Part shown: positions 4,667 to 39,637 of the stretch, piece by piece
Layout: each line of letters begins with the position of its first letter
Position numbering within the stretch: position 1 is the first letter of the stretch
Sequence record: MN850617.1
Strand: one strand, 5' to 3'
Source of the DNA: Escherichia phage forsur
DNA length: 42,476 nucleotides
Notes under the pieces: model-generated
Told to the model about the DNA's origin: nothing
What the model saw: the letters and a program-made list of their open reading frames with translations, nothing else
The model's database searches: none
Position numbers and translations under genes: made by a program

Positions 4667-4852
4667 ATGGGTAAAGAATCTCCATTAGATAGAGTAACAT
4701 TCACTAAAGCTCAGATAGCTCTACTGGAAAAGCACTTCGGTACATGGGTACAGGTAGGCAGAACAGTAACACCTGACACTAACCTACCACTGATTAACAG
4801 AGAAGCTGGTAAGCAGGATGTACTGGACTTCATCCGTGAAAGAGTGATTTGA
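4667..4852 (+). CDS. hypothetical protein (61 aa)
   Basis: ATG 4667 preceded by GAGAGG; the ORF track starts it earlier at 4568 but that start lacks an RBS and covers the promoter-like element. Confidence 0.5.
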   Translation: MGKESPLDRVTFTKAQIALLEKHFGTWVQVGRTVTPDTNLPLINREAGKQDVLDFIRERVI

Positions 4853-4853
4853 A

Positions 4854-5273: not shown

Positions 5274-5533
5274 TGGGTAGCGTAGGTAAAGTTTTCAAGG
5301 GGATTGGCTCGGTCTTTGGACTAGGTAGCCAGAAACCCCAGTACACGATTAAGACTGACCCGAATCAGGTCAAGGCTGAAACCTTGAATGCAAACTTGCA
5401 GGCTGATTTGGCGAACGATAACACCCCGACGATTCAGGCAGGTGGTCAGGTTACTTCGGCCTCCGACACTTTATCGAGCCGACGCCGCCGCACCGGAACG
5501 GGTGTAGCAAGCAACCTCGGCATCGGGAGTTAA
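5273..5533 (+). CDS. hypothetical small protein upstream of portal gene
   Basis: ATG 5273 overlaps upstream stop (TAATG) and follows GGAGAAACC; 86 aa, Gly/Ser-rich. Confidence 0.55.
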   Translation: MGSVGKVFKGIGSVFGLGSQKPQYTIKTDPNQVKAETLNANLQADLANDNTPTIQAGGQVTSASDTLSSRRRRTGTGVASNLGIGS

Positions 5534-5536
5534 CGA

Positions 5537-9361: not shown

Positions 9362-9371
9362 TGGTAAACTC

Positions 9372-9394
9372 GAAGCCCTTCATTGAGGGGCTTC
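9372..9394 (+). terminator. hairpin downstream of capsid gene (terminator candidate)
   Basis: GAAGCCC-TTCATTGAG-GGGCTTC, a perfect 7-bp stem followed by TATGATTAT; position is analogous to the T7 terminator after gene 10. Confidence 0.5.
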
Positions 9395-9427
9395 TATGAT
9401 TATCGTTACTCACCCAAAGGAGGGTGC

Positions 9428-26039: not shown

Positions 26040-26450
26040 GGCGCGTCAAGAGGATTGCCTGCGTGCGGTATAGCTCGTGCGTGTCGCGTTTCATCGTCTG
26101 CCGTGTGGCGTGCTGTGCGCTGTCCTGCTGGCTGTGCTGTGCGGTGCTGTCCTATGGGGACGCTCTGCGCTGGCTGTGCTGTGCTGCGTGCTGCGCTCGG
26201 TCGGGCGGGTATCTGTCTCTTTTGCCGTGGTACGCTCTGCGCCGTGGTGGTGCTGTGTGGTGGTGGTGCTGCCGTGGTGCTGTCCTGTCTGCTGGTCTAC
26301 TGTCTGCGCCGCCAGCTCTGCGCGTCATGCTCTGCTACCTGCTGCTACTGTCCTACTGCGTTCACTGGCTGCCGCCTGTCATCCTGTCGGATTCCATCCG
26401 TTGCCGTTCCGCGCTCGCTTGTTTCGGCTGCGCCGCGCTCGCTCTGCGTA
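26040..26450. repeat. A-depleted (C/G/T only on + strand) low-complexity block with degenerate GCTG/CTGTG/GGTG repeats; candidate terminal-repeat region
   Basis: Adenine is nearly absent on the + strand over ~400 bp, so no + frame contains a stop; non-coding position between the last late gene and the early promoters. Confidence 0.6.
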
Positions 26451-26462
26451 TCTAGCGATACA

Positions 26463-26485
26463 TATCACTATAGTCACTTTCATAA
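26463..26485 (-). promoter_or_regulatory. inverted exact copy of the T7-class promoter-like element at 4585..4607 (would fire leftward into the A-depleted block)
   Basis: + strand TATCACTATAGTCACTTTCATAA is the reverse complement of 4585..4607 (23/23). Confidence 0.4.
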
Positions 26486-26499
26486 TTATCTATTGATAT

Positions 26500-26590
26500 C
26501 AGTAACTTATAACCTATCTGATAACGGTATCTATCCTATGCAATAACCTATTCAATCAAATATTTATTCCTAATGATTACAGTAACTTAT
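26500..26590. repeat. AT-rich segment with 11-bp direct repeat CAGTAACTTAT (26500..26510 and 26580..26590)
   Basis: Read directly; copies are 80 bp apart, each preceded by TGAT; candidate origin or packaging iterons. Confidence 0.4.
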
Positions 26591-26622
26591 CCACTATTTG
26601 AGCTATTCAGTGAAAATAAATC

Positions 26623-26651
26623 TTGCAATGCTGTTTGTGATTTGCTGTAAT
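26623..26651 (+). promoter_or_regulatory. host sigma70-type early promoter P1
   Basis: -35 TTGCAA (26623..26628), 17-bp spacer, extended -10 TGcTGTAAT (hexamer 26646..26651); A-rich UP-like tract upstream. Confidence 0.6.
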
Positions 26652-26726
26652 TCTCATCGCCGGGTAGCAGAACATCGCTACACGGTGGCAAGACGGTAAC
26701 ACTGCTCTTTAACAATCTGGAGTGTA

Positions 26727-26755
26727 TTGACAAGGCAAGCTCACTATGCTGTAAT
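26727..26755 (+). promoter_or_regulatory. host sigma70-type early promoter P2
   Basis: -35 TTGACA (26727..26732), 17-bp spacer, extended -10 TGcTGTAAT (hexamer 26750..26755). Confidence 0.65.
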
Positions 26756-26863
26756 GCTTCCAGTCAGCCAGACAAGCCAAACAGTCATGGATAAAGACGT
26801 TAAAACCCGCGCAGGCTAACTGGTACGGATTATTCATCTCAGAATGGGCGCTGAATAAAACGG

Positions 26864-26892
26864 TTGACAGGATGAAACGAGTATGCTGTAAT
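26864..26892 (+). promoter_or_regulatory. host sigma70-type early promoter P3
   Basis: -35 TTGACA (26864..26869), 17-bp spacer, extended -10 TGcTGTAAT (hexamer 26887..26892); AATAAAA upstream. Confidence 0.65.
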
Positions 26893-26944
26893 ACGCTCCA
26901 GATTGACAGGGCAAGCAAGCCTGACAGTCAGTAGTAAAAAGTAG

Positions 26945-26973
26945 TTGACAAGCTGAATACACTGTGTTGTAAT
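26945..26973 (+). promoter_or_regulatory. host sigma70-type early promoter P4
   Basis: -35 TTGACA (26945..26950), 17-bp spacer, extended -10 TGtTGTAAT (hexamer 26968..26973); GTAAAAAG upstream. Confidence 0.65.
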
Positions 26974-27451
26974 CAGCACCGAGTTGGAAGGATGCAAAAC
27001 ATCCTGCTCTGAGTGAACGCAAACTGGCCGCGTAGTGTCACGGCTCACTGGGTATCCGCCGCAGGTTGGAACTGGGTGAGGCATCGCCGAAAGGCAACGG
27101 TATCGCAACAATGCTAACGCCGTAGGGGTAGCGCCTGATGCAAGGTAACGGAGAAGCGCGATAGACGCAGCGCAGTATCAGTACAATACCAAACGTCTTA
27201 TAAGGCGCGGAGTATAGCGGGTAGGTAGTCAAACGGCTTGTTAGCTGGCAACGGTGAGCAAGATACGCGACGGACTGCTGGAAGACTCCTGAGAGTGGAT
27301 GCAGACAATATCCACAGCGCGAAATGGGCGGGGCGATTTTTCAGGGTAGTGAATCCGACAAGCCAATCAATGCCACTGAGTGCAGACTGTACGGCGCGTC
27401 ACAATGGGTTCACTATCCACCTGAAAATAGCCAACAACTGGAGAAATAACT

Positions 27452-27844
27452 ATGTACCGTATCTATGCAAGCGCATATCGTCAGAACAACGCTGAGTGTG
27501 TTAATCTGGCGCTTCATTGCAAGGCACTGCGAACGGTGCAGGATATGTTCGGAGTGATTCCGGTCACACTGACAGGCAAGTTCGACAATGCGTATGAGTT
27601 AAGCATGGTCTTTCCTGTCGATGGAATCTACGAAATCAGACAGGCTGTTAAGCTGTTCTGTAAAGCCTTTGAACAGGACTGCATCATGGTAGTGACCGAT
27701 GACAATGATGCAATCTTCATGGATTCACCATATCCGGGCAAGCCTGCTGGCAAGTTTGTCAGCAAGACAGAAGCGGAGATGGAAGCCGGGCAGTTCACTG
27801 CTTGGACTTACGATGGTGAGCAATTTTGGGTAGTGGAGGCGTAA
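27452..27844 (+). CDS. hypothetical early protein (130 aa), first gene after the leader
   Basis: ATG 27452 with GGAG 8 nt upstream; ORF in track. Confidence 0.7.
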   Translation: MYRIYASAYRQNNAECVNLALHCKALRTVQDMFGVIPVTLTGKFDNAYELSMVFPVDGIYEIRQAVKLFCKAFEQDCIMVVTDDNDAIFMDSPYPGKPAGKFVSKTEAEMEAGQFTAWTYDGEQFWVVEA

Positions 27845-27845
27845 T

Positions 27846-27917
27846 ATGTTCACTGCACTCTGTGTGATAGCGGCGGCGTGCTGGCTGATTGACCAGCGCC
27901 TGTCTAAGCGAGCCTGA
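27846..27917 (+). CDS. tiny hydrophobic peptide (23 aa), speculative
   Basis: ATG follows upstream stop by 1 nt with GGAGG 8 nt upstream; MFTALCVIAAACWLIDQRLSKRA. Confidence 0.25.
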   Translation: MFTALCVIAAACWLIDQRLSKRA

Positions 27918-27918
27918 T

Positions 27919-28002
27919 ATGTGGGACTTACTGGTAGCGTTGTTCTGGTTTGTCTTTGCAGGCTTGTGGATTTACTGGTTGACTCGTCCCAAATTATGGT
28001 GA
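27919..28002 (+). CDS. tiny hydrophobic peptide (27 aa), speculative
   Basis: MWDLLVALFWFVFAGLWIYWLTRPKLW; weak RBS. Confidence 0.25.
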   Translation: MWDLLVALFWFVFAGLWIYWLTRPKLW

Positions 28003-28008
28003 CTGCCT

Positions 28009-28030
28009 AATGCGTCTTGCGAGGCGCATT
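28009..28030 (+). promoter_or_regulatory. intergenic hairpin with UUGCGA hexaloop (copy 1 of 4)
   Basis: AATGCGTC-TTGCGA-GGCGCATT; 8-bp stem including one G-U pair. Confidence 0.45.
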
Positions 28031-28066
28031 GTGAAGTAACCAACCAACAACCCGACGAGGTGTATC

Positions 28067-28594
28067 ATGACTACTGTTAAATATACTGCATTCAAAGATG
28101 CTGCGGCGCTGGACAAAGCTATCGAAGCGACTGTCAAAAAGGCGCACTCACTCCGTAACGATATTCAGAATGTTGCGGTCGGTATTATCCTGCACGCTTA
28201 CCATCACGGCGACTACACTCGTGCTGAGTCGTTCACTCACCAACTGGGTGATGGCGTCCGTGGTAAGGCACTGGTTGACTGGTTCGTCCAGTTCGGCGGC
28301 CTGATTGTGGGTGAGCATGAAGATGGCAAGTCCGGCTTCGTTGGCTGGAAGGGTGCCGACTTCATCAAAGAGAACATCGACAAGGCGAAAGCCACGATGT
28401 GGTGGACTTGCAAGCCAGAAGCGGCCTTTGATGGCTTCGACCTGCAAGATGCGCTCGAAAAGCTGATTGCCAAAGCTGAAAAGGCAATGAACAAGGCGAA
28501 CGAGCTGCGCCACGAAGGGCGCGATGAGGATGCGAACAAGGTTGTCGTGCCTCAGAACGTGCTGGACGGCCTGCGCAAGCTGAAAGCTGCGTAA
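28067..28594 (+). CDS. hypothetical early protein (175 aa)
   Basis: ORF in track; RBS GAGG upstream. Confidence 0.7.
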   Translation: MTTVKYTAFKDAAALDKAIEATVKKAHSLRNDIQNVAVGIILHAYHHGDYTRAESFTHQLGDGVRGKALVDWFVQFGGLIVGEHEDGKSGFVGWKGADFIKENIDKAKATMWWTCKPEAAFDGFDLQDALEKLIAKAEKAMNKANELRHEGRDEDANKVVVPQNVLDGLRKLKAA

Positions 28595-28607
28595 GCGGGA
28601 TTGACTC

Positions 28608-28629
28608 AAGCCATCTTGCGAGGTGGCTT
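28608..28629 (+). promoter_or_regulatory. intergenic hairpin with UUGCGA hexaloop (copy 2 of 4)
   Basis: AAGCCATC-TTGCGA-GGTGGCTT; followed by GGCAATTCTGCC at 28633..28644. Confidence 0.45.
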
Positions 28630-28667
28630 TATGGCAATTCTGCCCCAACAATTACGGAGTATCATCC

Positions 28668-28952
28668 ATGACCACTAAAACTGTTCTGGCCTACGTCACC
28701 AAGAAAGGCGAAGAAGTGTACGGCTATGCTGTGTCTATCGACGGCGGCCACAACTACCTGCATCACGTTCGTGAAGAAGGTGAACCGACTGACCACGATG
28801 GCATTCTGGAAACGCTGAAAGGCATCCCGCTGCCGCACGAAATCATCTGTATGCTGGCTGGCCAGACGGAAGATGACCTGCAACTGCGTCACGGCGACGA
28901 CCTGACCATTCAGGGTATCGGCAGCTTCGAAGCTGACGTAGACGACGAATAA
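28668..28952 (+). CDS. hypothetical early protein with acidic C-terminal tail (...GSFEADVDDE)
   Basis: ATG 28668 preceded by GGAG; ORF track starts it earlier (GTG 28623) across the hairpin, which is unlikely. Confidence 0.7.
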   Translation: MTTKTVLAYVTKKGEEVYGYAVSIDGGHNYLHHVREEGEPTDHDGILETLKGIPLPHEIICMLAGQTEDDLQLRHGDDLTIQGIGSFEADVDDE

Positions 28953-28962
28953 GCGTTGTCCT

Positions 28963-28986
28963 GCTGCATCCTTGCGAGGGTGCAGC
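28963..28986 (+). promoter_or_regulatory. intergenic hairpin with UUGCGA hexaloop (copy 3 of 4)
   Basis: GCTGCATCC-TTGCGA-GGGTGCAGC; followed by GGCAATACTGCC at 28989..29000. Confidence 0.45.
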
Positions 28987-29025
28987 GTGGCAATACTGCC
29001 TTATTCCAATCTGAGGATTAATCCT

Positions 29026-29106
29026 ATGTCTACACTGAAACTGGTACTGATTTCTAACATCGCTGCTGACGCTTTCGACGCTGATGACGTGGACTTCTCT
29101 GCGTGA
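29026..29106 (+). CDS. tiny acidic peptide (26 aa), possible remnant of the acidic-tail family
   Basis: ATG 29026 with GAGG 8 nt upstream; MSTLKLVLISNIAADAFDADDVDFSA. Confidence 0.3.
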   Translation: MSTLKLVLISNIAADAFDADDVDFSA

Positions 29107-29113
29107 TACCTTA

Positions 29114-29135
29114 CTGCCTCGTTGCGACGGGGCAG
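29114..29135 (+). promoter_or_regulatory. intergenic hairpin with UUGCGA hexaloop (copy 4 of 4)
   Basis: CTGCCTCG-TTGCGA-CGGGGCAG; followed by GGCAATCATGCC at 29139..29150. Confidence 0.45.
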
Positions 29136-29171
29136 TGCGGCAATCATGCCCAACCTAACTGGAGATTTACC

Positions 29172-29453
29172 ATGGCTACAATCAACGTGTATTCCCTGAG
29201 CAACGGCGGTCTGGCATTCATCGCTGGTGATAAGGTAGACGAAGCGCCGTCGCTGGGCGTGACGCCGAAACCGGAGGCCAGCCGTGATGATGTTATCGCG
29301 GAAGTCAAGGGTGCGCTGGAAGACCTCGGCGGTCTGCTGTTCGTCCTGAATGGTGGCAAGCTGTCGGTTGAAAAGCTGGACGCGCTGGAACCTGTCTTTG
29401 TTGAGAGCTTCGAAGCTGACAACATCGACCTCGCTGCTTTCGCTGACGCCTAA
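29172..29453 (+). CDS. small acidic early protein, tandem paralog A (MATINVY...SFEADNIDLAAFADA)
   Basis: ATG 29172 preceded by GGAG; alignable end-to-end with 29791..30099. Confidence 0.75.
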   Translation: MATINVYSLSNGGLAFIAGDKVDEAPSLGVTPKPEASRDDVIAEVKGALEDLGGLLFVLNGGKLSVEKLDALEPVFVESFEADNIDLAAFADA

Positions 29454-29491
29454 GCATAACCCGAAACCCACAACCAAAGAGGACAATCAAC

Positions 29492-29722
29492 ATGGCTAAG
29501 TTTGAACTGGTACGCTTCATTGACCCGAACGATGGCGAAGAAACCTTCGCGCAGTTTGCTGATGACCGCTCGCTGGTCGCCATCTACAACACTGAGCGCA
29601 CGGCGCGGCGCTGGTTCAAGGAAGACGACGACATGGACAGCATCGAAGAAGCGCTGGCTATGCCGGGCTACGCTGAGGCTGTCGAGGCAGCACTGAAAGG
29701 CGAAGTCGTAGCGACTGCGTGA
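29492..29722 (+). CDS. hypothetical small acidic protein (76 aa)
   Basis: ORF in track; RBS AAGAGGA upstream. Confidence 0.7.
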   Translation: MAKFELVRFIDPNDGEETFAQFADDRSLVAIYNTERTARRWFKEDDDMDSIEEALAMPGYAEAVEAALKGEVVATA

Positions 29723-29790
29723 TTTCTGTCAGCCCATCCATAGCGGTGGGCTGTAGGGCAATCATGCCACAACAACTGAGGGTATACACC

Positions 29791-30099
29791 ATGGCAACTA
29801 TCAACGTCTACAAAACTATCACTGGCTCACTGGTATTCGTAGTGGGTGAACTGCGTGAAGATGCACCAATCGTTGGCGTGTCTCTGCGTGAAGGGGCAAC
29901 CGAGGCTGACGCCATCGCTGAGATTCGTCAGAACATTGAGAACCTCGGCGGCCTGTTCTTCCTGCTGCAAGGTGGCAGCCTGAACCTCGCTAAGTTGCAG
30001 GAGCATGAGCCTGTACTCGTGACCAGCTTCGAAGCGGAAGATGTAGACGCCAGTGACTTCGAAGCCAGCCGCGCTGACGAAGAAGAAGCAGGCGAGTAA
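29791..30099 (+). CDS. small acidic early protein, tandem paralog B (MATINVY...SFEAEDVDASDFEAS...)
   Basis: ATG 29791; upstream hairpin 29730..29753 and GGCAATCATGCC at 29757..29768 mirror paralog A. Confidence 0.75.
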   Translation: MATINVYKTITGSLVFVVGELREDAPIVGVSLREGATEADAIAEIRQNIENLGGLFFLLQGGSLNLAKLQEHEPVLVTSFEAEDVDASDFEASRADEEEAGE

Positions 30100-30212
30100 T
30101 GAGCGCCATCGAGGTGGCACTGATGTTGGGCTGTCATGCAGGTATTGGCAGCCTCGTCATCTACATCGTTGGCGCGGCACGCAAATCATACGATAGGAGA
30201 ACCAAGCTATGA
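30099..30212 (+). CDS. tiny hydrophobic peptide (37 aa), speculative
   Basis: ATG overlaps upstream stop (TAATG); MSAIEVALMLGCHAGIGSLVIYIVGAARKSYDRRTKL. Confidence 0.3.
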   Translation: MSAIEVALMLGCHAGIGSLVIYIVGAARKSYDRRTKL

Positions 30213-30385
30213 AGTTTGCAGTATCGCGCAGCGGTGCAAGCCATGCGGCACACAAGTTGCACTTCCTGTTCCACTCGCTGTACCTTACAGCGGCTGCGAT
30301 GGAGGGTCACTTGTTCTATAGCCTCATGGCTGGCGGCACCTTACTGTTCATGGTTGGCACGGCGGTGCTGGGCAATGAACATTAA
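30209..30385 (+). CDS. small hydrophobic protein (58 aa), speculative
   Basis: ATG overlaps upstream stop (ATGA), AGGAG upstream; contains LMAGGTLLFMVGTAVLG. Confidence 0.3.
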   Translation: MKFAVSRSGASHAAHKLHFLFHSLYLTAAAMEGHLFYSLMAGGTLLFMVGTAVLGNEH

Positions 30386-30548
30386 TCTGTTACAACGGGT
30401 CAAGGGTATGGAGCGTCGGCACTGGGAGACGGCCATCATCCTTAAGGTAAGCATAAGCGCTGGACTGGCTGCTGCTTATTTCCTGCCAACCACCGCAGCA
30501 ATAGCCGTTGGTATCAGCACCAACCTGCTATGGTTGTGGAAGTTGTAA
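30375..30548 (+). CDS. small membrane protein (57 aa)
   Basis: In-frame ATG within track ORF 30216..30548; contains AIAVGISTNLLWLW; followed by terminator-like hairpin. Confidence 0.4.
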   Translation: MNINLLQRVKGMERRHWETAIILKVSISAGLAAAYFLPTTAAIAVGISTNLLWLWKL

Positions 30549-30562
30549 GCAGTGGATTACTC

Positions 30563-30590
30563 AAGGCTGTCCAGCGGGTAGCCTTTTTGA
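30563..30590 (+). terminator. intrinsic terminator candidate
   Basis: AAGGCTGTCC-AGC-GGGTAGCCTT stem-loop followed by TTTTGA. Confidence 0.5.
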
Positions 30591-30612
30591 AATCCATTGA
30601 CGAGAGGGGAGC

Positions 30613-30951
30613 ATGGCACTACATCGAGTGAAGGTAATGCGTGGGCCTGACTTCGAAGACGGGCAAGAGATTGCTGCATTGCAGTACCGCTTGCCGTCCG
30701 GTCAGGAGGGGCTGGTCATCATTGACCAGATTGAAATCATGGGTGAGCACATGCTGATTGCTGATGCCACCGATGAGCAAATCATTGAGCGCTGCAAGGC
30801 ATACGCCGGGGGCAGACCGTTCATCATCGACCTGATGAATGACCAGCACATCAATGCTGATGGTTCGCTGCTGTTCAAGGCATGGCTTTATGCTCTCACA
30901 ACAATCTACGAAGGGGAGATGTATCTCTTTGGCGTAGACAACGAGGGTTAA
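30613..30951 (+). CDS. hypothetical protein (112 aa)
   Basis: ORF in track; RBS GAGAGGGGAG upstream. Confidence 0.7.
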   Translation: MALHRVKVMRGPDFEDGQEIAALQYRLPSGQEGLVIIDQIEIMGEHMLIADATDEQIIERCKAYAGGRPFIIDLMNDQHINADGSLLFKAWLYALTTIYEGEMYLFGVDNEG

Positions 30952-30954
30952 ATC

Positions 30955-31269
30955 ATGAAGGTAAGCAAAGGATATCTGTTCGTGCTGTTGATGCTGGCCA
31001 CCCTGTATCTCAGCACCGTGCATGTGGCACTGGCAGCCACTGTGGAGAAGGTGCATTTGGATGCGTATGACGTACCGCTGGGCGCACCTGATGGACAGGT
31101 GTACTCTGCTTGCGTCATTGACCTACGCAAAGGCGGCACTGTCAGCACACTGGCCTACGTTGGTGAGTGTGAGGATGTGCTGCCACACCTGAAAGAAAAG
31201 CTGGAGCATGATGGCGTGACCACCATCGTGACTCTCTCAATCAACGGTCATAACATCAACCTAACGTGA
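30955..31269 (+). CDS. secreted/periplasmic small protein with N-terminal signal peptide
   Basis: MKVSKGYLFVLLMLATLYLSTVHVALA-ATVEK: charged N-region, hydrophobic core, ALA-A cleavage-like site; mature part has two Cys. Confidence 0.7.
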   Translation: MKVSKGYLFVLLMLATLYLSTVHVALAATVEKVHLDAYDVPLGAPDGQVYSACVIDLRKGGTVSTLAYVGECEDVLPHLKEKLEHDGVTTIVTLSINGHNINLT

Positions 31270-31277
31270 GGTTTTAT

Positions 31278-31529
31278 ATGAGCACTCAAGCTAAGATTGT
31301 AATTCTGCGCAACGACTATGGCCGTCCTACTCCGTTCGGCACCTTCTGTCCGTTCCTCGATACCATTGAGGGTAAAGAGTACGATGTACTCATCCTTGAG
31401 CCGGGCGAAGTGGACGCCGAAGGGGATGAAGTTGACAAGCGCTCGGTCAGTTTCCGCGATGAAGTGGGTGACTTAGCTGGCGCACACATTGACTACCATG
31501 AAGGTAAGTCATTCAAGTTCGTCGAGTAA
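31278..31529 (+). CDS. hypothetical protein (83 aa)
   Basis: ATG 31278 with GAGG 6 nt upstream. Confidence 0.65.
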   Translation: MSTQAKIVILRNDYGRPTPFGTFCPFLDTIEGKEYDVLILEPGEVDAEGDEVDKRSVSFRDEVGDLAGAHIDYHEGKSFKFVE

Positions 31530-31587
31530 TAATCTACAGCCTCTGCTTGCTGGGGCTGTGTCACTATCAAATAAACGAGAGGCAAAC

Positions 31588-31833
31588 ATGGCTAAGTATG
31601 ACGTATACAAAGACGGTGAGGGTGACTGGACTATCGTACCGGAAGGGCAGCAGATTGTAGCCCCGGTCGATGTGATTGCAATGAACGGCGCGGCGGCTGA
31701 GACACTGGCTGATGTGCAGCGCATCGCAACCACCAAGCGTGCAGGCTTCGAAGCTAACCGCACGCATGTCAAGTCGCAGGCTGTCATCAATCGCTTCGGC
31801 CCGTATGAACTGGCCGGGACTATTGAAGTGTGA
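31588..31833 (+). CDS. hypothetical protein (81 aa)
   Basis: ATG 31588 with GAGAGG upstream; preceded by hairpin 31537..31558 and motif TGTCACTATCAAA. Confidence 0.65.
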   Translation: MAKYDVYKDGEGDWTIVPEGQQIVAPVDVIAMNGAAAETLADVQRIATTKRAGFEANRTHVKSQAVINRFGPYELAGTIEV

Positions 31834-31890
31834 TAAGCTACTGCCCCTGCGTGCCGGGGGCAGTGTCATTATCAAACGATGGAGGTGGGT

Positions 31891-32175
31891 ATGGTACTGG
31901 CATCTGAATCAATCATTGAACACGCTGCTGATATCCGGGCGGCGGTTGAAAAGCGCGGGGTCGCAGCTACCCGTGGTCATCTCTCTGGCAACGGTGGCCT
32001 GCGTGGTCACAGCGTAGGCGGTGTGTTTCCCTGCGTTATCTTTGCTCGTGGCAATCCTAATGTGAAGCTCGACTGGTGCTTCCTCACACCAGCGGGTGAT
32101 GAGTTCGATGGCTTCATTAGTTATGAGGATGCGTATGCAGCCGCGCAGGAATGGCTGGAGAAAAGAGAGGTGTAA
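31891..32175 (+). CDS. hypothetical protein (94 aa)
   Basis: ATG 31891 with GGAGG upstream; preceded by hairpin 31841..31863 and motif TGTCATTATCAAA. Confidence 0.65.
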   Translation: MVLASESIIEHAADIRAAVEKRGVAATRGHLSGNGGLRGHSVGGVFPCVIFARGNPNVKLDWCFLTPAGDEFDGFISYEDAYAAAQEWLEKREV

Positions 32176-32176
32176 C

Positions 32177-32470
32177 ATGAGCAGAAGTGCTAAGTGGGAT
32201 GCGCTGGTACAGTGGGTGAAGGATAGCTTCGGGCCACCGCCTACCCCTGACCACGATGACTCGCCGTTCCAATACGTCGAGAAGAAAACGCAGGAGCTTA
32301 AGCTGGGCGACTACGTTGTAGCATACGGTGGATACATCCAGCGCATCGGTGCCGTTGAATATGATGGCAGCCGACTGGTTGTAACCAAGCTGGGGCATGG
32401 CCCTGAACGTGAATGGCAGGCGTTTGAAGACGACGAGTTCACAATCCGCACACTGAAAGAAGGAAAGTAA
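32177..32470 (+). CDS. hypothetical protein (97 aa)
   Basis: ATG 32177 with AGAGAGG upstream. Confidence 0.65.
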   Translation: MSRSAKWDALVQWVKDSFGPPPTPDHDDSPFQYVEKKTQELKLGDYVVAYGGYIQRIGAVEYDGSRLVVTKLGHGPEREWQAFEDDEFTIRTLKEGK

Positions 32471-32472
32471 TC

Positions 32473-32988
32473 ATGGCTATTGACTTTAAATTATTCAACG
32501 CCGAGCAACTTGAAACTGTCAAGTCTCTGGCTGAGTTCATCGACAACCACCCGGAGCTGAGCGAACTGGTTGAGTTCAAGGGTGGCTACCTGCCGAAGCA
32601 AAGTTACATCGGCGCGGTGCGTAAAGGTCGTGAAGGTATGCTGGATATTATTCCGCAGACCAGAACCGGGGCGCTGCTGGCACGCAACGTCAGCGTGCTG
32701 ATTGGCATGAACGTGAAGCGTGCCAGTGAGCAGGGCAATGCGGCTGAGGTTGAGACGCTGCGCCTGACAGGTACGCTCGCAGCTAAGGCCATGTCGGAAC
32801 CGGACATTGCCGAGCGCTATCATGACTGGTACATGGCGTGCGCTAATGTGCCAAGCGATATCAGTGAGACGACGCTGGGCCTGCTGTTCGTAGGTGAGTT
32901 CATCGACGCAACCATCCGTGCAGTCAGCGGTCAGGTGGGTGAATTAATTCAGGCAATGCAGCAGGCCAAGAATGCAACACGTCACTAA
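32473..32988 (+). CDS. hypothetical protein (171 aa)
   Basis: ORF in track; RBS GAAGGAAAG upstream. Confidence 0.7.
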   Translation: MAIDFKLFNAEQLETVKSLAEFIDNHPELSELVEFKGGYLPKQSYIGAVRKGREGMLDIIPQTRTGALLARNVSVLIGMNVKRASEQGNAAEVETLRLTGTLAAKAMSEPDIAERYHDWYMACANVPSDISETTLGLLFVGEFIDATIRAVSGQVGELIQAMQQAKNATRH

Positions 32989-33213
32989 GCTCACCGTAAC
33001 CAAATCACCCACCGGATTATTCTGGTGGGTAGTTGATAAGCTGCAACCAAATAAACCTTTGGCTGTGCGTGATACAAAGTGGGAAGCCGAGAGTAAACTC
33101 GAAGACCTTCAACGTATTATGCGGAATGTTATTCCAGCTTAGCCATCTACTCATGCCAGTTATTATTTAGCTGGCATTATGAAGGTGACTATATTGGACA
33201 ACCCGGAGGAAAT

Positions 33214-33381
33214 ATGTTTCGTGTATTAATGTTATTCGTACTCGTCGTTATATTGTGGGGCGCGTTATGGGTAGGCGTTGCCTATTTAATTCAGCCTTAC
33301 ATTGGCGAACAGCTTACCTCTGTAATTGGTACGCTGCTTGGGCTTTGTTGTTGGCGCAGTTGGTATGTCCAAGTGCATTGA
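33214..33381 (+). CDS. small membrane protein (55 aa)
   Basis: ATG 33214 with GGAGG upstream; MFRVLMLFVLVVILWGALWVGVAYLIQPY... has two hydrophobic helices; preceded by promoter-like GGTGACTATAT. Confidence 0.45.
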   Translation: MFRVLMLFVLVVILWGALWVGVAYLIQPYIGEQLTSVIGTLLGLCCWRSWYVQVH

Positions 33382-33408
33382 CATTGGCTGGAGTAAGGGG
33401 TGGATTAA

Positions 33409-33849
33409 ATGGTAAAGCCAAAGTACAAAGTCGGGGATGAAATCGTGGGCGACGATGGCACTGGCACCCGGTCGGGTAAGCTGGGTATCATCGCATGGGT
33501 TAACCCTGACCGCCGAGCGTGGGAACGCAGCGGGGAAACTCGTTACATCGTGAGCTGGATTGGCGAGCGCTTGAATGCGCAGCCGGATATCAGCCACTAC
33601 AAATCTGACTGGCTGGAGGACAACACCAGTCTGGTCAGTACCCCGGCGCAGAAGCGCGGTCGGTTCATGTGTCTGCTTGAGGGCGGCAGCACGCCGCCGA
33701 AGATTGAACACATCACTGAACGTGAAGCGCGTGATGAAGCTGAGCGTCTGGCAGAACGCCACGGTGGTACTGTCCGTGTGCTGCAAGTTGTGGCCAGCGT
33801 GAAGATGAAGAAGAAGATTCAGTACATACCGGACTGGGATAACGAATGA
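33409..33849 (+). CDS. hypothetical protein (146 aa)
   Basis: ORF in track; RBS AAGGGGTGG upstream. Confidence 0.7.
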   Translation: MVKPKYKVGDEIVGDDGTGTRSGKLGIIAWVNPDRRAWERSGETRYIVSWIGERLNAQPDISHYKSDWLEDNTSLVSTPAQKRGRFMCLLEGGSTPPKIEHITEREARDEAERLAERHGGTVRVLQVVASVKMKKKIQYIPDWDNE

Positions 33850-34556
33850 TGAAATCAGTGAGCAACGACGAGTGGCCGGAGCTGGCGAAGCGTCTGCCTG
33901 TAGGACAAAAGCGAAGGACGTTTCACAGTTGCTCGCGGTCATTCAACAAGACCAACTTCGAGTATGGCCGTGCGCCGGATTACATCTGGTGCAAGTGCCA
34001 CCGCTGTGGGTACAGCCAGAAGCGTGACCTGACTCACGCTGTGTATGTGCCGCCAGCCGAGGTGCAGGTGAAGGTGCCGACTGATGTGGTGCCTATCACT
34101 GAGGTGATTGCCAAGCAGCCACGACTGCTGCTGCCAGTGCTGGAGCGGGAGAACCTGATGCCGCACCTGTCACTCCTGACTGCAAGCCCAACGTATGGCA
34201 GGCTGTATCTGCCGGACGACACGGGCAGCTACTGTGGTCTGGACTACACCGGGCGGCAGTTCATCCCGTGGCGCTCGCCGCATAAGCATAGCTTGGCGAT
34301 GAAGGTCAGTCCTCGTGGTGACGCGGAGACTAACTGCCTCTGGATTTATGGTGAGGTGGATGAGTATCTCCAGCAGGTGCGCGATGGTGGTAACTGTGCA
34401 TTCGTTCCGAACGTGGATGATGCAACGTTGCAGGCTCTGGTCAGTGTGACGCTGGCGTATGGGTACAACCTCGTAGTCGTCTGCCACCACCCAAGCGCCC
34501 AACGTATCCGCAGGGAGCTGCGTATTGTGGGGCGTGTGCAAATCGTAGGAGAGTGA
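33846..34556 (+). CDS. DNA primase-like protein (putative; Cys/His cluster)
   Basis: 236 aa directly upstream of the helicase gene, with CSRSF...CKCHRCG zinc-binding-like cluster; call is by position plus motif, weak. Confidence 0.5.
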   Translation: MMKSVSNDEWPELAKRLPVGQKRRTFHSCSRSFNKTNFEYGRAPDYIWCKCHRCGYSQKRDLTHAVYVPPAEVQVKVPTDVVPITEVIAKQPRLLLPVLERENLMPHLSLLTASPTYGRLYLPDDTGSYCGLDYTGRQFIPWRSPHKHSLAMKVSPRGDAETNCLWIYGEVDEYLQQVRDGGNCAFVPNVDDATLQALVSVTLAYGYNLVVVCHHPSAQRIRRELRIVGRVQIVGE

Positions 34557-36488: not shown

Positions 36489-37161
36489 TGCCGAAGCTAA
36501 GCGCGTGTGGGCAGAAGACATCTGCCGTCTGCTGCAATCCGAAGAACTGAACTTCGTGGTTGCCGGGGGAGGGGCAAGGGATACCGCGTTGGGTGTTGAG
36601 CCGAAGGACTACGACATTGTGGTCTTTGGTTGGGGTGGTGATGTGAGCCGTGTGGCTGGCCGACTGGACTGGCTGGACTCCAGACTGGAGGACTATGCCA
36701 AGCAGCACGAGCTGTCGTATGAATACATGCCGAGCTATCACGATGCAGCAGAGGGTGGCGACTTCGGCTCCCGGCTGTGGGGTGTGTATAAGATTGGCCC
36801 GGTCGATGTGATTATCAGTAAGTGTGGGTGCTGGTCACAGGTACTGAACGAGTTCGACTTCAACCTGAACCAGTTCTACTTCCCGTCCAGTATCCCGCGT
36901 TACTCCGGCCAGTACAGCCGTGACCCCGGCGAGTTCATGGCGTATCCGTATGAGCCGAACCTCACTGCCGAAGATGTGCAGTGGTTCCCGGCGCTGGCCA
37001 GCCTGGTAGAAAGCTATGATGACCTGCTGACTCTCCGTGTCTGCCGACCGGATGCCAGCCTGAGTCGTGTGGCTTACATGCTGGAGAAGCACGAGAAGTA
37101 TCTGCCAGCCATTGAAGCATACGTTAATCGTATGCCCGACCACTTAGGTGGCAAAGCATAG
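36478..37161 (+). CDS. Pol-beta-superfamily nucleotidyltransferase (CCA-adding / poly(A) polymerase head-domain-like)
   Basis: ATG 36478 with AAGGGGAAA upstream; VVAGGGARDTALGVEPKDYDIVVFG matches the recalled GG.VRD...DxD head-domain signature. Confidence 0.6.
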   Translation: MISNAEAKRVWAEDICRLLQSEELNFVVAGGGARDTALGVEPKDYDIVVFGWGGDVSRVAGRLDWLDSRLEDYAKQHELSYEYMPSYHDAAEGGDFGSRLWGVYKIGPVDVIISKCGCWSQVLNEFDFNLNQFYFPSSIPRYSGQYSRDPGEFMAYPYEPNLTAEDVQWFPALASLVESYDDLLTLRVCRPDASLSRVAYMLEKHEKYLPAIEAYVNRMPDHLGGKA

Positions 37162-37171
37162 CGGGGGATTG

Positions 37172-39637
37172 ATGGCTATTCGAGCACAGATTATCGACGT
37201 TGAAACTGAGAACCATGAGTGGTATGGGGAGCTGGCATCACCTCGCTGCCCTGACAACTACGTGGTGATGCAGGGACAGCGCGACTGTGTGCTGACCAAG
37301 GATGGCTGGGAGTTCTACAAGCGTGAGGAATATCGGTACGCATCCCGTGAGGATTGGCTGGCGAACAAGAGCCTGCACCTCCACCCGGATACGAACATAC
37401 TGGTTGCACACAACGCGCCGTATGAACTGAGCTGGTGGTTCGAGCATTACGGTGACGAGTTCAAGGCATTCCTCTTACGAGGTGGCCGCGTATTCTGTAC
37501 CGCTTATGCTGAGTATCTGCTGACACACCAGCAATCCCAGTACCCATCCTTGAACGAGACAGCACCGAAGTATGGTGGTACTCACAAGGTGGATGCAGTC
37601 AAGGCAATGTGGGAGTCAGGTTATCTGACCAGCCAGATTGACGCTGAGCTGCTGAGCGAGTATCTGTCCGGGCCGTCCGGCGATATCGAGAACACGACCA
37701 AGCTGTTCGTTGGTCAGTGGGCAGAGCTGACGAAGCAGGGCATGTTGCAGATGGCACTGACCCGGTTCGAAGGTATGCTCATGTGGGCGTACATGATGCA
37801 CTCCGGTCTGCACGTTGACCGTGAGGTAGCAGAGCGTAACCGCCGTGAGTTGCAGGATTCAATCAGTGGGTTAACCGAGACACTGATGGGCTACCTGCCT
37901 GCCGACATGCCGAGTGAAGCGCGTGAGCAATTCAAGTTCACGTCTGCATATCACATGAGCGCGTTCGTGTTCGGCGGCGTGATGAAGTACAAGGCGCGGG
38001 TCGAGCGCCGGGATGCCGATGGCAATCTCATTTACGTGAAGGTGGATGCACCACTGTTCAAGCGTGGCAAGGACAAGTGGCTCAAGCATACCAGCGAGTG
38101 CGTGTGGGATGATGAGACTGGGTTGTGGTATGACCCGGTTGAGAAGGTACACCAGACTATCTACTCCAGCGGCAAGCACAAAGGCGAGCCGAAGTTTGAG
38201 AAGCTGGCGACCGATGAGGTGGACACTAAGTGGGGTGAGGTACTGTTCCGGCTGCCCGGTCTGCTGCGTGTGCAGGACAGACGGGCGCGGGAGATTGCCG
38301 ACAACCTTGAGTGGGAAGACCCGAAGCGTCCGGGTGAATATCTCCGGCGCACTGGTGACTGGGTAGGTAAGCGCAAGCTGGCTGACGGTTCTCCTGTATT
38401 CAGTACGGCGGGTGAGGTGCTGGACATTCTGGCAGCTCGTAAGATTCCCGGCGTCGTGGAGATTGCTGACCGGGCCAAGGCGCAGAAAGACCTAGGCACC
38501 TACTACCTCAGCGAGACGTTTGATGAGGATGGCAACGTGACTGGCCAGTCGGGGATGATGCAGTTCATCCAGCCGGACAGTATCGTACACCACACCATCA
38601 ACATGACCGCGACTGAGACGACACGCTTGTCGTCGCAGCGACCGAACAGCCAGAACCTGCCGCGTAAAGGTACGAGTAAAGTTAAGCAGATGTTCACCTC
38701 CCGCTTTGGCGAAGGTGGCCGCATCGTTGAGGCTGACTACTCGGCACTGGAAGTGGTGGGGTTGGCCGGGTTCAGTAAGGACAAGAACCTGATTCGTGCA
38801 TTGCTCGATGGTATCGACATGCACTGTATGCGATTGTCTGCTCAACTCAATGAGCCATACGAGGACGTGCTTAAGAAGTGCAAGGATGAGTCCCATCCTG
38901 ACCATGCACGATACAGTCAGATGCGTACTGACATCAAGCCCAAGGCGTTCTCCTATCAGTATGGTGCAACAGCGCGGGGCATTGCCTACTCGACTGGTTG
39001 CTCGGAGGAAGAAGCACAGGCGTTCATCGACAACGAGAAGGGTCTGTTCCCGGAAGTTGAAGAATGGTTCGACGCTGTAATCTTCCCCGCCGTTGAGCGT
39101 AGTGGACAGAGCAACGTGTTCAAGGAACAAGATGAGAACGGACGGTGGCAGGTGTATCGCCGTGGTCACTTCCGCTCGCCGGGTGGAACTTGTTATTCAT
39201 TCCGTCAGTACGAGAAATGGAACAAGGCGGCGCGTGCTTATCTGATGGAATACAAACCAACCCAAATGCGTAACTATCCTATTCAGGGTGAGACAGCGTT
39301 TTGGGTACAGGGAATTGGTGGGCTGCTGTTCCGCTGGCTGCTGGCCAATGACTTCTTTGGTGGGCGTGTGGTTCCCATCAACCAAGTGCATGACGCATTC
39401 TATTTCGACGTGGCACCTGACTGCCCTCACGAGTTCTTCGTTGGACTCAAGGCAATCATGGAATCCATACCGGAATACTACAACCACATCTGGCCTGAAT
39501 ATAACCTGACAGTTCCGTTTCCGGCAGAGGTAGAAGCTGGGCCAAGCATGTACGAAAAGCATCACGTAGAGACGACAGCCGAAGAAGTGCTGGAGTTCAA
39601 ACGTAACTTCCTGACGAGTAAGGGTATTAGCATATGA
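37172..39637 (+). CDS. family A DNA polymerase with 3'-5' exonuclease domain
   Basis: Exo motif IIDVETE; polymerase motif A ADYSALEVV, motif B KPKAFSYQYGATARG, motif C QVHDAFYFD; ATG 37172 with GGGGGA upstream (track lists GTG 37148). Confidence 0.95.
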   Translation: MAIRAQIIDVETENHEWYGELASPRCPDNYVVMQGQRDCVLTKDGWEFYKREEYRYASREDWLANKSLHLHPDTNILVAHNAPYELSWWFEHYGDEFKAFLLRGGRVFCTAYAEYLLTHQQSQYPSLNETAPKYGGTHKVDAVKAMWESGYLTSQIDAELLSEYLSGPSGDIENTTKLFVGQWAELTKQGMLQMALTRFEGMLMWAYMMHSGLHVDREVAERNRRELQDSISGLTETLMGYLPADMPSEAREQFKFTSAYHMSAFVFGGVMKYKARVERRDADGNLIYVKVDAPLFKRGKDKWLKHTSECVWDDETGLWYDPVEKVHQTIYSSGKHKGEPKFEKLATDEVDTKWGEVLFRLPGLLRVQDRRAREIADNLEWEDPKRPGEYLRRTGDWVGKRKLADGSPVFSTAGEVLDILAARKIPGVVEIADRAKAQKDLGTYYLSETFDEDGNVTGQSGMMQFIQPDSIVHHTINMTATETTRLSSQRPNSQNLPRKGTSKVKQMFTSRFGEGGRIVEADYSALEVVGLAGFSKDKNLIRALLDGIDMHCMRLSAQLNEPYEDVLKKCKDESHPDHARYSQMRTDIKPKAFSYQYGATARGIAYSTGCSEEEAQAFIDNEKGLFPEVEEWFDAVIFPAVERSGQSNVFKEQDENGRWQVYRRGHFRSPGGTCYSFRQYEKWNKAARAYLMEYKPTQMRNYPIQGETAFWVQGIGGLLFRWLLANDFFGGRVVPINQVHDAFYFDVAPDCPHEFFVGLKAIMESIPEYYNHIWPEYNLTVPFPAEVEAGPSMYEKHHVETTAEEVLEFKRNFLTSKGISI

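Follow-up and report, generated by a model that had tools for sequence, protein, structure and literature searches.

The early region of phage forsur and its recurrent 12-mer

The window analysed here, the whole 42,476-bp stretch of DNA from Escherichia phage forsur, represents a phiKMV-type coliphage (Bonnellvirus) with 98.5% identity to phage glasur, and its phage RNA polymerase gene is positioned after the DNA metabolism genes. TTGACA-type promoters are located at 26623-26973 and are followed by an early region of small ORFs. Within the intergenic gaps of this region the 12-mer GGCAATNNTGCC occurs four times, always downstream of the TTGACA-type promoters and, in genome order, ahead of the phage RNA polymerase gene. 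Because the early region follows these promoters, the cassettes containing the 12-mer (Table 1) should be transcribed into polycistronic early mRNA. Copy 2 is followed by an ORF of only 26 codons, what is left of a 112-codon gene, and copies 3 and 4 precede paralogous genes whose products both begin MATINVY. Scans of ten early ORFs returned no significant Pfam domain (a single match did not reach the curated cut-off) and no functionally assigned PHROG family, and an Rfam search of positions 26400-34000 gave no family match.

Exactly four exact matches to GGCAATNNTGCC were found in the window, at 28633, 28989, 29139 and 29757, all on the plus strand, intergenic and absent from coding sequence. 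In dinucleotide-preserving shuffles (n=100) the mean count was 0.14 and the maximum 1, such that none of the 100 shuffles reached four. When one mismatch was allowed, the sole additional match was the reverse-strand reading of the copy at 28989; the window thus holds no degenerate copies. Each copy lies 1-5 nt 3' of a GC-rich hairpin, the distance from motif start to ATG is 35, 37, 33 and 34 nt (ATGs at 28668, 29026, 29172 and 29791), and 9-12 nt separate the end of the 12-mer from the Shine-Dalgarno sequence. The original prediction of four copies, each preceded by a hairpin and at near-constant distance (33-37 nt) from a start codon, was therefore confirmed, and the motif is non-random and strand-specific. 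Each of the four early start codons that it named is indeed preceded by the motif, but they are not strictly consecutive, as a gene devoid of the motif (29492-29722) intervenes between copies 3 and 4.

The motif is kept in every Bonnellvirus relative examined. Most of the Bonnellvirus genomes fetched possess three to four copies at equivalent sites, with a single copy in ROV85, and a more distant IMG/VR relative carries two. GGCAAT and TGCC, including C12, are invariant, and the orientation is uniform, in 35 of 35 distinct copies collected, an invariance partly imposed by the exact-pattern search, yet matched by the lack of degenerate copies in the window. In the relative L014 the 12-mer is unchanged despite completely different upper stems and flanks. 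Neither copies inside coding regions nor absence from relatives, the two observations that the original prediction had named as evidence against it, were seen. Identical cassettes precede different genes in different relatives, indicating that the cassettes move by recombination.

Table 1 Features of the forsur window (T7-only, covariance model R1 built from T7 sites; R2, reciprocal model; E-values are rough).
Feature	Position	Strand	Sequence	Evidence or remarks
Small early ORFs downstream of the 12-mer cassettes	28668-28952, 29026-29106, 29172-29453, 29791-30099	+		All ORFans
Cassette 1, composite hairpin	28595..28644	+		MFE; pair probabilities; T7-only match at 28598-28643, E 1.5e-3; alignment with T7 R0.5, R0.3 and R1.1
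Cassette 1, lower-stem 5' strand	28595-28603		GCGGGAUUG	
Cassette 1, internal loop			ACUCAA / UUUAU	T7-like
Cassette 1, upper stem-loop	28608-28629			
Cassette 1, 12-mer	28633-28644		GGCAAUUCUGCC	Lower-stem 3' strand
Cassette 1, RNase III cut	between 28632 and 28633			Predicted
Cassette 2	28952..29000	+		Folding; R2 match at 28953-29000 by construction
Cassette 2, upper stem-loop	28962-28987			
Cassette 2, 12-mer	28989-29000		GGCAAUACUGCC	
Cassette 3	29101..29150	+		Pair probabilities; covariation; z = -2.96 against shuffled 12-mer
Cassette 3, lower-stem 5' strand	29101-29107; 29109-29110		GCG-UGA-U; CC	Last codon and stop of the 26-codon ORF (29101-29107)
Cassette 3, upper stem-loop	29112-29137			
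Cassette 3, 12-mer	29139-29150		GGCAAUCAUGCC	
Cassette 4	29717..29768	+		Folding; marginal T7-only match at 29720-29769, E 0.95
Cassette 4, lower-stem 5' strand	29717-29727		GCGUGAUUUCU	Last codon and stop of gene 29492-29722
Cassette 4, upper stem-loop	29730-29753			
Cassette 4, 12-mer	29757-29768		GGCAAUCAUGCC	
Hairpin of the same architecture without 12-mer	27997..28042	+	GUGAAGUAACCA (3' strand)	Upstream of gene 28067-28594
Best T7-like RNase III-type site in the window	30553..30601	+	ACUCAAGG...CCUUUUUGAAAUCCA	T7-only, 37.3 bits, E 7.9e-8; upstream of gene 30613-30951
Hairpin cassette	31527..31574	+	UGUCACUAUCAAA (3' strand)	Weak T7-only match, E 1.8; upstream of gene 31588-31833
Hairpin cassette	31831..31879	+	UGAUAAG / UUAUCA (lower stem)	Lower stem with upstream stop codon; T7-only, E 0.45; upstream of gene 31891-32175
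Hairpin cassette	33142..33193	+	TTATGAAGGTGACTATATTGG	3' flank overlaps candidate phage RNA polymerase promoter; T7-only, E 1.2e-3
T7-like RNase III-type hairpin	9362..9408	+		Directly 3' of major capsid gene; T7-only, E 1.2e-6
Candidate phage promoter	4585-4607, 33177-33197		TTATGAARGTGACTATAKTG	
Candidate phage promoter	26463-26485	-	TTATGAARGTGACTATAKTG	

A composite hairpin with a covarying lower stem

RNA folding pairs positions 1-11 of the 12-mer with a 5' flank of the form GCG-nn-AU(U)G..CC, which starts at the final codon and stop of the upstream gene, or next to that stop. The 12-mer and this flank constitute a lower stem beneath the GC-rich upper stem-loop (9-11 bp), from which it is separated by a small internal loop or bulge, giving 17-20 bp in total; folds including the full lower stem have a total helix of 20, 19, 20 and 20 bp in cassettes 1-4. 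The hairpin, originally regarded as a separate upstream feature, is thus the upper half of the same structure as the 12-mer. In cassettes 1, 3 and 4, as in the two copies of the distant relative L014, motif positions 1-11 pair with the 5' flank at a probability of about 0.9. The fold of cassette 2 is ambiguous: a lower stem GUUGUC:GGCAAU can form, but a local hairpin in the 5' flank competes with it, and in longer context the 12-mer is predicted to pair with itself as a mini-hairpin. Across distinct cassettes the true 12-mer folds better than its own permutations (z -1.2 to -4.2). The small GGCA/UGCC stem proposed earlier is not the main structure, the probability of self-pairing being close to zero in three of the four window copies; it is predicted solely where other pairing occupies the 5' flank, at the 28989 copy and at one J8-65/Lidtsur site, or after the predicted RNase III cut.

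The two NN positions, formerly read as a spacer, covary with their partners in the 5' flank, with the combinations CA:UG, UA:UG, UC:GG, CC:GG, AG:CU and AA:UU. In an alignment of 16 distinct cassettes 95.6% of the cells are paired, compared to 37-48% with the partners slid. In six pairs, the two NN positions among them, both partners change; compensatory changes occur in both stems, and the observed covariation score was reached by none of 500 shuffles. The lower-stem pairs of two type-2 rows are undercounted in this analysis, since the MAFFT alignment shifts these rows by two columns. Covariation of NN with bases some 45 nt away makes sense only for a folded single strand. Lower-stem pairing does not, however, explain all of the sequence conservation: C12 is unpaired in the long hairpin yet invariant, and one J8-65/Lidtsur site has its 12-mer outside the long hairpin. 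The gap between hairpin and 12-mer is 12 nt in one relative, instead of 3.

Comparison with the RNase III sites of T7

RNase III processing of T7 early mRNA is textbook biology, and its early-region signals R0.3, R0.5, R1, R1.1 and R1.3 were reportedly described by Dunn and Studier in 1983. A covariance model (R1) was built from these five T7 early sites alone and used to search the whole window on both strands with filters off. It returned seven matches, all of them plus-strand intergenic hairpins and including cassette 1 and, at the margin, cassette 4, with no match to cassettes 2 and 3 at E <= 10; the same model matches equivalent sites in relatives. A reciprocal model (R2), built from the 12-mer cassettes and searched against T7 nt 400-6600, had its best T7 match at 1430-1477, i.e. 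R0.5, with an E-value of 1.6e-3, which like all covariance-model E-values here is rough because calibration was shortened. The hairpin directly 3' of the major capsid gene is present at the same position in the relatives L004 and L005.

The sequence of T7 R0.5 is GACUCAAGG-hairpin-CCUUUAUGAUUAUCAC and that of cassette 1 is GACUCAAGCC-hairpin-GGCUUUAUGGCAAUUCUGCC. In alignment, the T7 cleavage point falls at the base immediately 5' of G1 of the 12-mer. In all four cassettes G1 lies 12-13 nt 3' of the apical loop, which equals the T7 cut-site distance. We take the T7 cut coordinates of Dunn and Studier to be 890, 1468, 3138 and 6450; of these, 890 and 1468 (R0.3 and R0.5) fall between UUUAU and GAU in the T7 sequence. 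Both sets of sites occupy intergenic gaps of polycistronic early mRNA transcribed by the host, exclusively on the sense strand, and in both an internal loop separates the upper from the lower stem, the whole spanning about two helical turns. The lower stem often holds the upstream stop codon (UGAU...AUCA), T7 R0.5 and R1 being examples. Cassette 1 shares with T7 the sequence block GACUCAAG...CUUUAUG, and related cassettes of relatives share an ACAGG...GGCCUGAAU block. The distance from hairpin to AUG is comparable, with leaders of 33-37 nt here and 24-35 nt in T7, and the covariance-model matches are reciprocal.

The two systems also differ. Forsur comes from another branch of the Autographiviridae and has a phiKMV-type gene order, and the invariant self-complementary 12-nt lower-stem 3' strand GGCAAUNNUGCC, present at four sites, has no T7 counterpart. 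Cleavage, experimentally defined in T7, is predicted here. Cassette 1 alone has a T7-type internal loop; the loops of cassettes 2-4 are much smaller, so that either both strands or neither might be cut at these sites. Substrates of E. coli RNase III span about two helical turns, and internal loops limit the enzyme to a single strand, so that a protective hairpin stays behind at the 3' end (PMC1540722). Within the T7 early region, R0.5 and R1.1 work efficiently in vivo (PMC3643576).

Taken together, the 12-mer is probably the lower-stem 3' strand of T7-related RNase III-type hairpins in Bonnellvirus early mRNA. Given how closely the hairpins resemble T7 RNase III sites, the motif would be an ordinary mRNA-processing signal, previously unannotated, rather than a protein-binding site. 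Host RNase III would cut the 3' side immediately before G1, both cleavage of the cassettes and its exact position being predictions. The upstream message would then end in a protective 3' hairpin, and the downstream message would start approximately 33-37 nt before the AUG, its C/A-rich leader unstructured and its Shine-Dalgarno sequence free. Our literature searches found nothing on regulatory elements of Bonnellvirus, LIMEzero or J8-65, and no description of early-mRNA RNase III processing in Bonnellvirus or other phiKMV-type phages.

Alternative readings and significance for the phage group

The hairpins could instead be structural and uncut by RNase III, serving as partial attenuators or as barriers to 3' exonucleases, with the 12-mer conserved only through recent paralogous copying of the cassettes. 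The missing large T7 internal loop and the weak or absent T7-model scores of cassettes 2-4 are in line with this, as are the paralogous MATINVY genes after copies 3 and 4 and the identical cassettes before different genes in relatives. We nevertheless consider it unlikely: cassette 1 and several neighbouring cassettes are clearly T7-site-like, no U-tract follows the hairpins and none was called terminator-like, a simple barrier or attenuator has no need of 17-20 bp held by a covarying lower stem, and the intact 12-mer in L014, where stems and flanks differ, favours selection over recent copying. A DNA operator for a dimeric phage or host protein, as originally suggested, or an RNA operator for a sequence-specific translational regulator would account for the GGCA/TGCC inverted repeat, the constant distance to the Shine-Dalgarno sequence, and the invariance of GGCAAT and TGCC in 35 distinct copies, with C12 lacking a partner in the long hairpin. 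That invariance is partly imposed by the exact-pattern search, however, and no candidate binding protein was found among the ten early ORFs (Pfam, PHROGs). Moreover, the conserved part is asymmetric and in a single orientation throughout, and the NN positions pair with the upstream flank; such an operator thus appears very unlikely. Still harder to credit is a promoter from which the phage single-subunit RNA polymerase (as a second class, as in KP34) or host RNA polymerase would begin transcription just downstream. The motif does sit where a promoter would, 3' of a hairpin and some 20 nt ahead of the Shine-Dalgarno sequence, its AATNNT agrees with a -10 element at A(-11), T(-10) and T(-7) and has an A 7 nt further on, and the KP34 RNA polymerase uses two unrelated promoter classes (PMC6834552). 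However, there is no -35 element at workable spacing and no TG extension, the motif shows no likeness to the phage's probable own promoter TTATGAARGTGACTATAKTG and is confined to four small early genes, and a promoter would give NN no reason to covary with a distant 5' flank.

A range of specific elements was tried and rejected. The original view that the motif is not a sigma-70 promoter was upheld: a consensus scan of 26400-34000 gave no plus-strand site at the motifs, and the hairpin-loop TTGCGA is just 14 bp from AATNNT, where 16-18 bp are expected. The sigma-54 consensus (GG-N10-GC) has its GG and GC elements at a fixed -24/-12 spacing, and those of GGCAATNNTGCC are 3 bp too close. For sigma-28, sigma-E and sigma-32 promoters the spacing or the hexamers are unfit. 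In the terminator scan none of the four hairpins was called an intrinsic terminator, their tails (UUUAUGG, CGUGGC, UGCGGC, UAGGGC) containing no U-tract. A palindromic dimer operator was dismissed on account of unequal halves (GGCAAT and TGCC), the same orientation in 35 of 35 copies, and a spacer that covaries with the flank about 45 nt away. RfaH ops, the hairpin-dependent pause and boxA/nut show partial likeness with unfit registers, and in one relative the gap between 12-mer and hairpin is 12 nt; inspection revealed no match to host factor sites (IHF, CRP, NtrC and others). The KP34 weak promoter and the Syn5 promoter have only GG.A in common with the 12-mer, which in turn shares nothing with TTATGAARGTGACTATAKTG, the candidate promoter of the phage RNA polymerase and similar to the tested CD23823 promoter (PMC12272871).

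If the 12-mer is a strand of an RNase III-type hairpin, its sequence constraint calls for comment. To our knowledge, RNase III does not need a specific lower-stem sequence, and the invariance of GGCAAU/UGCC across paralogous sites must therefore have another reason, either an extra function or spread by recombination. One possible, albeit doubtful, explanation is that the 12-mer is a two-state RNA element: a lower-stem strand before the cut and a protective 5'-terminal hairpin after it. Before processing, the lower stem would supply the length required by an RNase III site. It would also couple folding to the upstream stop codon, so that a ribosome terminating there would melt the pairing of the 12-mer. 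After the cut, the downstream 5' end is predicted to form a flush 4-bp hairpin, GGCA-AUNN-UGCC (P > 0.9, -3.5 to -3.7 kcal/mol), which would keep RNase E away from the 5'-monophosphate end and make the downstream early mRNA more stable. A flush 5'-terminal hairpin is known to shield the 5' end from RNase E, and 5'-terminal stem-loops that stabilise mRNA, such as that of the ompA 5' UTR, were reportedly described by Emory, Bouvet and Belasco in 1992. Like these, the forsur mRNA would begin with a flush 5' hairpin after the predicted cut; unlike them, the forsur hairpin is short, and its stabilising role is purely putative. If true, the two-state model would explain the invariance of C12, the self-complementarity of the motif and its retention outside the long hairpin at one site in relatives.

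Similar cassettes are known from elsewhere. PeSL (promoter-early stem-loop) cassettes, which Arbiol et al. are said to have described in T4-type phages in 2010, combine a stem-loop with a sigma-70 early promoter. As in forsur, these are short intergenic stem-loop cassettes repeated between small early ORFans, and the same cassette flanks different genes across relatives, suggesting a modular role in gene shuffling; in contrast to PeSL, no promoter is detectable at the forsur cassettes, which resemble RNase III sites instead. In KP34-like Klebsiella phages, Eriksson et al. (2015) reported a 'putative phage promoter' AGCCTATAGCGTCCTACGGGGCGCTATGTGAA (PMC4411677). A near-identical copy of this element lies upstream of the gp2 homologue in the Bonnellvirus relatives HHU8, J8-65, Lidtsur and L014, and a variant is found at 27997-28042 of the window, again as an intergenic early hairpin with a conserved 3' flank, which differs in having GUGAAGUAACC instead of the 12-mer. 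The promoter reading is unsupported by the experimentally determined KP34 promoters (PMC6834552). The shared architecture, with weak model scores, suggests that this element too is RNase III-like in Bonnellvirus.

The cassettes may represent a set of compact, naturally occurring RNase III-type insulators that share a conserved lower stem and are comparable in kind to T7 R0.5 and R1.1, which synthetic biology already employs (PMC3643576). The refolding that may follow the cut would add a small idea on how phages may protect the 5'-monophosphate ends made by RNase III. Palindromes of T7 RNase III sites trigger the Lamassu (DdmABC) defence system (PMC11707656), and with ten or so such palindromes the phage is therefore a plausible Lamassu target. 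Finally, since the related KP34-like hairpin was published as a promoter, the present result would correct and fill the annotation for the whole phage group.

Motif occurrence and early-region context

A search of the whole window for GGCAATNNTGCC, the GGCAAT-NN-TGCC 12-mer, returned four exact matches (28633, 28989, 29139 and 29757), all on the plus strand, against a mean of 0.14 and a maximum of one in dinucleotide-preserving shuffles; permitting one mismatch added only the reverse reading of one copy. On inspection of the sequence, every copy is intergenic, lies 1-5 nt past a GC-rich hairpin and precedes an ATG (28668, 29026, 29172 and 29791) by 33-37 nt, with a Shine-Dalgarno sequence 9-12 nt past the motif end. 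The original prediction of a motif that follows a hairpin at near-constant distance from an ATG is thus borne out, as are its four start codons, but these are not strictly consecutive: copies 3 and 4 are separated by a gene that has no motif (29492-29722). Three or four copies are present in most of the Bonnellvirus genomes and early regions examined, one in ROV85, and two in the more distant IMG/VR relative L014 (gp2 65% identical in protein), all plus-strand, intergenic and equivalently positioned relative to the next gene, with NN as TC, AC, CA, AA, CC, TA or AG. The 12-mer was not found in the more distant relatives examined (41-48% identity).

The window represents a circularly permuted Bonnellvirus (Autographiviridae) with a phiKMV-like gene order and an early region 98.5% identical to that of Escherichia phage glasur. 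Four TTGACA- or TTGCAA-type promoters lie upstream of the early genes which, together with the gene order, places the motif-bearing hairpins (cassettes 1-4, in order of position) inside a host-transcribed polycistronic early mRNA. These tandem promoters (17-bp spacer) were missed by a consensus scan because their identical, unusual -10 hexamer, TGTAAT, has G in place of the near-invariant A(-11); TTGACA-N17-TGTAAT also occurs in L014. The early leader contains a perfect boxA of the rrn type, TGCTCTTTAACAA, 3' of the first promoter (TTGCAA, 26623-26628) and 5' of the next three, and a similar TGTTCTTTAACAA occurs in a distant relative (L017); the element points to antitermination of host RNA polymerase by Nus factors in this operon.

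Pfam and PHROG matching gave no known function for the ORFs flanking the cassettes and no match for the small early proteins downstream. The ORF after copy 2 (29026-29106) has only 26 codons and is a homologue of glasur gp4 (112 aa) carrying a 258-bp in-frame deletion between two direct repeats of GATGACGTGG. The proteins of 28668-28952, 29026-29106, 29172-29453 and 29791-30099 share an acidic C-terminal tail with a FEAD/FDAD-x-(V/I)D pattern, and genes 29172 and 29791 are paralogous, both beginning MATINVY.

Coordinates of features in the window (and, where named, in relatives), with E values of the covariance model built from T7 sites
Feature	Position	Strand	E value
Small early ORFs	from about 27450		
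DNA polymerase gene	37148-39637		
RNA polymerase gene (structural genes then follow)	2124-4559		
Tandem early promoters (-35 TTGACA or TTGCAA)	26623-26651, 26727-26755, 26864-26892, 26945-26973		
boxA TGCTCTTTAACAA	26703-26715		
TTATGAARGTGACTATAKTG element, probable promoter	4585-4607, 33177-33197	+	
TTATGAARGTGACTATAKTG element, probable promoter	26463-26485	-	
AGCCTATAGCGTCCTACGGGGCGCTATGTGAA element, 5' of gp2 homologue in several Bonnellviruses	27997-28042; L006 about 5826-5900; L008 about 1858-2004; L014 about 2211-2268		
T7-model match	30553-30601	+	7.9e-8
T7-model match, strong T7-RNase-III-site-like hairpin directly 3' of major capsid gene	9362-9408	+	1.2e-6
T7-model match	33142-33193	+	1.2e-3
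T7-model match, cassette 1	28598-28643	+	1.5e-3
T7-model match	31831-31879	+	0.45
T7-model match, cassette 4	29720-29769	+	0.95
T7-model match	31527-31574	+	1.8

A composite RNA hairpin

In RNA folds of cassettes 1, 3 and 4 and of both L014 copies, positions 1-11 of the 12-mer pair with the 5' flank, which reads GCG-nn-AU(U)G..CC; the pairing probability is about 0.9, and that of self-pairing about 0. The small self-contained GGCA/UGCC stem originally envisaged mostly does not form. The flank starts either directly past a UAA stop (UAA GCG...) or with the upstream gene's last sense codon and UGA stop (GCG UGA U...). With the GC-rich upper hairpin above it, this lower stem gives a composite structure of 17-20 bp that a small internal loop or bulge interrupts, and the real 12-mer folds better than its own permutations (z between -1.2 and -4.2). 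The fold of cassette 2 is ambiguous, because its flank can form a local hairpin.

The NN bases, seemingly a spacer, pair and covary with the flank nn (CA:UG, UA:UG, UC:GG, CC:GG, AG:CU, AA:UU), mismatches being confined to two AC variants. Across an alignment of 16 distinct cassettes, standard pairs fill 95.6% of cells, and sliding the partners by 1-3 columns lowers this to 37-48%. Both sides have changed in six pairs, four of them in the upper stem and the other two at NN, and none of 500 shuffles reached the observed covariation score. Between relatives, the upstream hairpins vary through compensatory changes, and in L014 they are wholly different with the 12-mer intact.

This long-range covariation, together with the asymmetry of the conserved part and the single orientation of all copies, makes a DNA operator for a dimeric protein, suggested by the short inverted repeat, unlikely. 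A promoter is also unlikely: the sigma-70 consensus scan found neither a -35 nor a TG element at the motif, in line with the original statement that it does not match a sigma70 promoter, and the motif does not resemble TTATGAARGTGACTATAKTG, probably the promoter of the phage RNA polymerase. That element is SP6-like and close to AATGTATACCCCTATATACAC, the CD23823 promoter tested by experiment. Its copy on the minus strand lies near the start of the glasur GenBank record, directed at glasur's only annotated minus-strand gene. Intrinsic termination fails as a reading because the hairpins have no U-tract. A related hairpin, AGCCTATAGCGTCCTACGGGGCGCTATGTGAA, was published as a 'putative phage promoter' in KP34-like phages (PMC4411677). 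Since it has the same cassette architecture, an RNA processing or stability hairpin is the more likely reading, and experimentally determined KP34 promoters give no support to the published one (PMC6834552).

Resemblance to T7 RNase III sites

An Rfam search of the cassette region gave no match. In the T7 early region, the five sites processed by RNase III (R0.3, R0.5, R1, R1.1 and R1.3) fold as the cassettes do and share sequence with them, as in R0.5 (UGAUAGACUCAAGGUCGCUCCUAGCGAGUGGCCUUUAUGAUUAUCAC) and cassette 1 (GGAUUGACUCAAGCCAUCUUGCGAGGUGGCUUUAUGGCAAUUCUGCC); other cassette types of relatives resemble T7 R1 (ACAGG...GGCCUGAAU). A covariance model built from the five T7 sites alone and run on both strands of the whole window (filters off, E <= 10) gave seven matches, all plus-strand intergenic hairpins, and in relatives it also matched cassettes between early genes as well as the hairpin after the capsid gene. 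In the window this last hairpin occupies the place of T7's main terminator, and its position is conserved in RZ4 and Kc261. Reciprocally, the best match of a model from the 12-mer cassettes in T7 nt 400-6600 was the R0.5 site (1430-1477, E 1.6e-3), whose lower stem, GUGAUAG/UUAUCAC, likewise takes in the stop codon of gene 0.4 upstream.

In the model alignments, the T7 cleavage point (between UUUAU and GAU) falls at the bond just 5' of G1, the first base of the 12-mer. The T7 cuts, which we take to lie at 890 and 1468 after Dunn and Studier 1983, are consistent with the T7 sequence inspected. In each of the four cassettes G1 lies 12-13 nt past the apical loop on its 3' side, as the T7 cuts do. 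Leaders from the predicted cut measure 33-37 nt, compared with 24-35 nt in T7.

Predicted processing, 5' ends and cassette mobility

Substrates of E. coli RNase III span about two helical turns, internal loops or bulges limit the enzyme to cutting one strand, and the product retains a 3' hairpin protective against 3'-5' exonucleases (PMC1540722); T7 R0.5 and R1.1 are efficient in vivo (PMC3643576). From these properties, the composite structure and the T7 similarity, we infer cleavage at the cassettes and its position: host RNase III would cut the early polycistronic transcript there, yielding messages, monocistronic or short, that end in a 3' hairpin and start with a defined 5' leader.

Paralogous sites and divergent relatives all keep GGCAAU and UGCC unchanged, down to the last base, C12, which is unpaired in the long hairpin; RNase III requires no particular lower-stem sequence. 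The 12-mer is kept even outside the long hairpin: one copy in J8-65 and Lidtsur lies 12 nt, not 3 nt, past its hairpin, where another box, AUUGUAACCAC, makes the lower stem and the 12-mer folds outside as a mini-hairpin. HHU8 and megetsur carry this cassette type before another gene and without the 12-mer. In all four leaders starting at the predicted cut, the 12-mer forms a flush 5'-terminal hairpin (P > 0.9, -3.5 to -3.7 kcal/mol), an arrangement that protects a 5' end against RNase E. Most of the Shine-Dalgarno region stays unpaired: cassettes 3 and 4 leave it free, and weak local stems touch it in 1 and 2. Refolding of the cut 5' end into a protective hairpin is one tentative, rather doubtful explanation of the invariance and of the retention outside the long hairpin; the dull alternative is a single cassette spread by recombination with no extra function. 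Identical cassettes do border different genes across Bonnellviruses (early regions L004-L010 compared with 28595-29768 here), with MTTKTV following the cassette 1 type in the window, MAKFELV following it in J8-65 and MTKLVLI in Lidtsur. Recombination boundaries among the early ORFans therefore coincide with the cassettes, much as with T4 PeSLs. A recombination-linker role in gene shuffling, as proposed for PeSLs, is compatible with RNase III processing, and the two roles may coexist.

The motif is real and is probably accounted for by a well-known mechanism: the cassettes are putative T7-type RNase III processing signals, previously unannotated, in a coliphage of the phiKMV type, and their lower stem is locally conserved. 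Read as RNase III sites, they correct annotation, including that of the related KP34 hairpin (PMC4411677), and the refolding explanation offers a small, testable idea on 5'-end protection.
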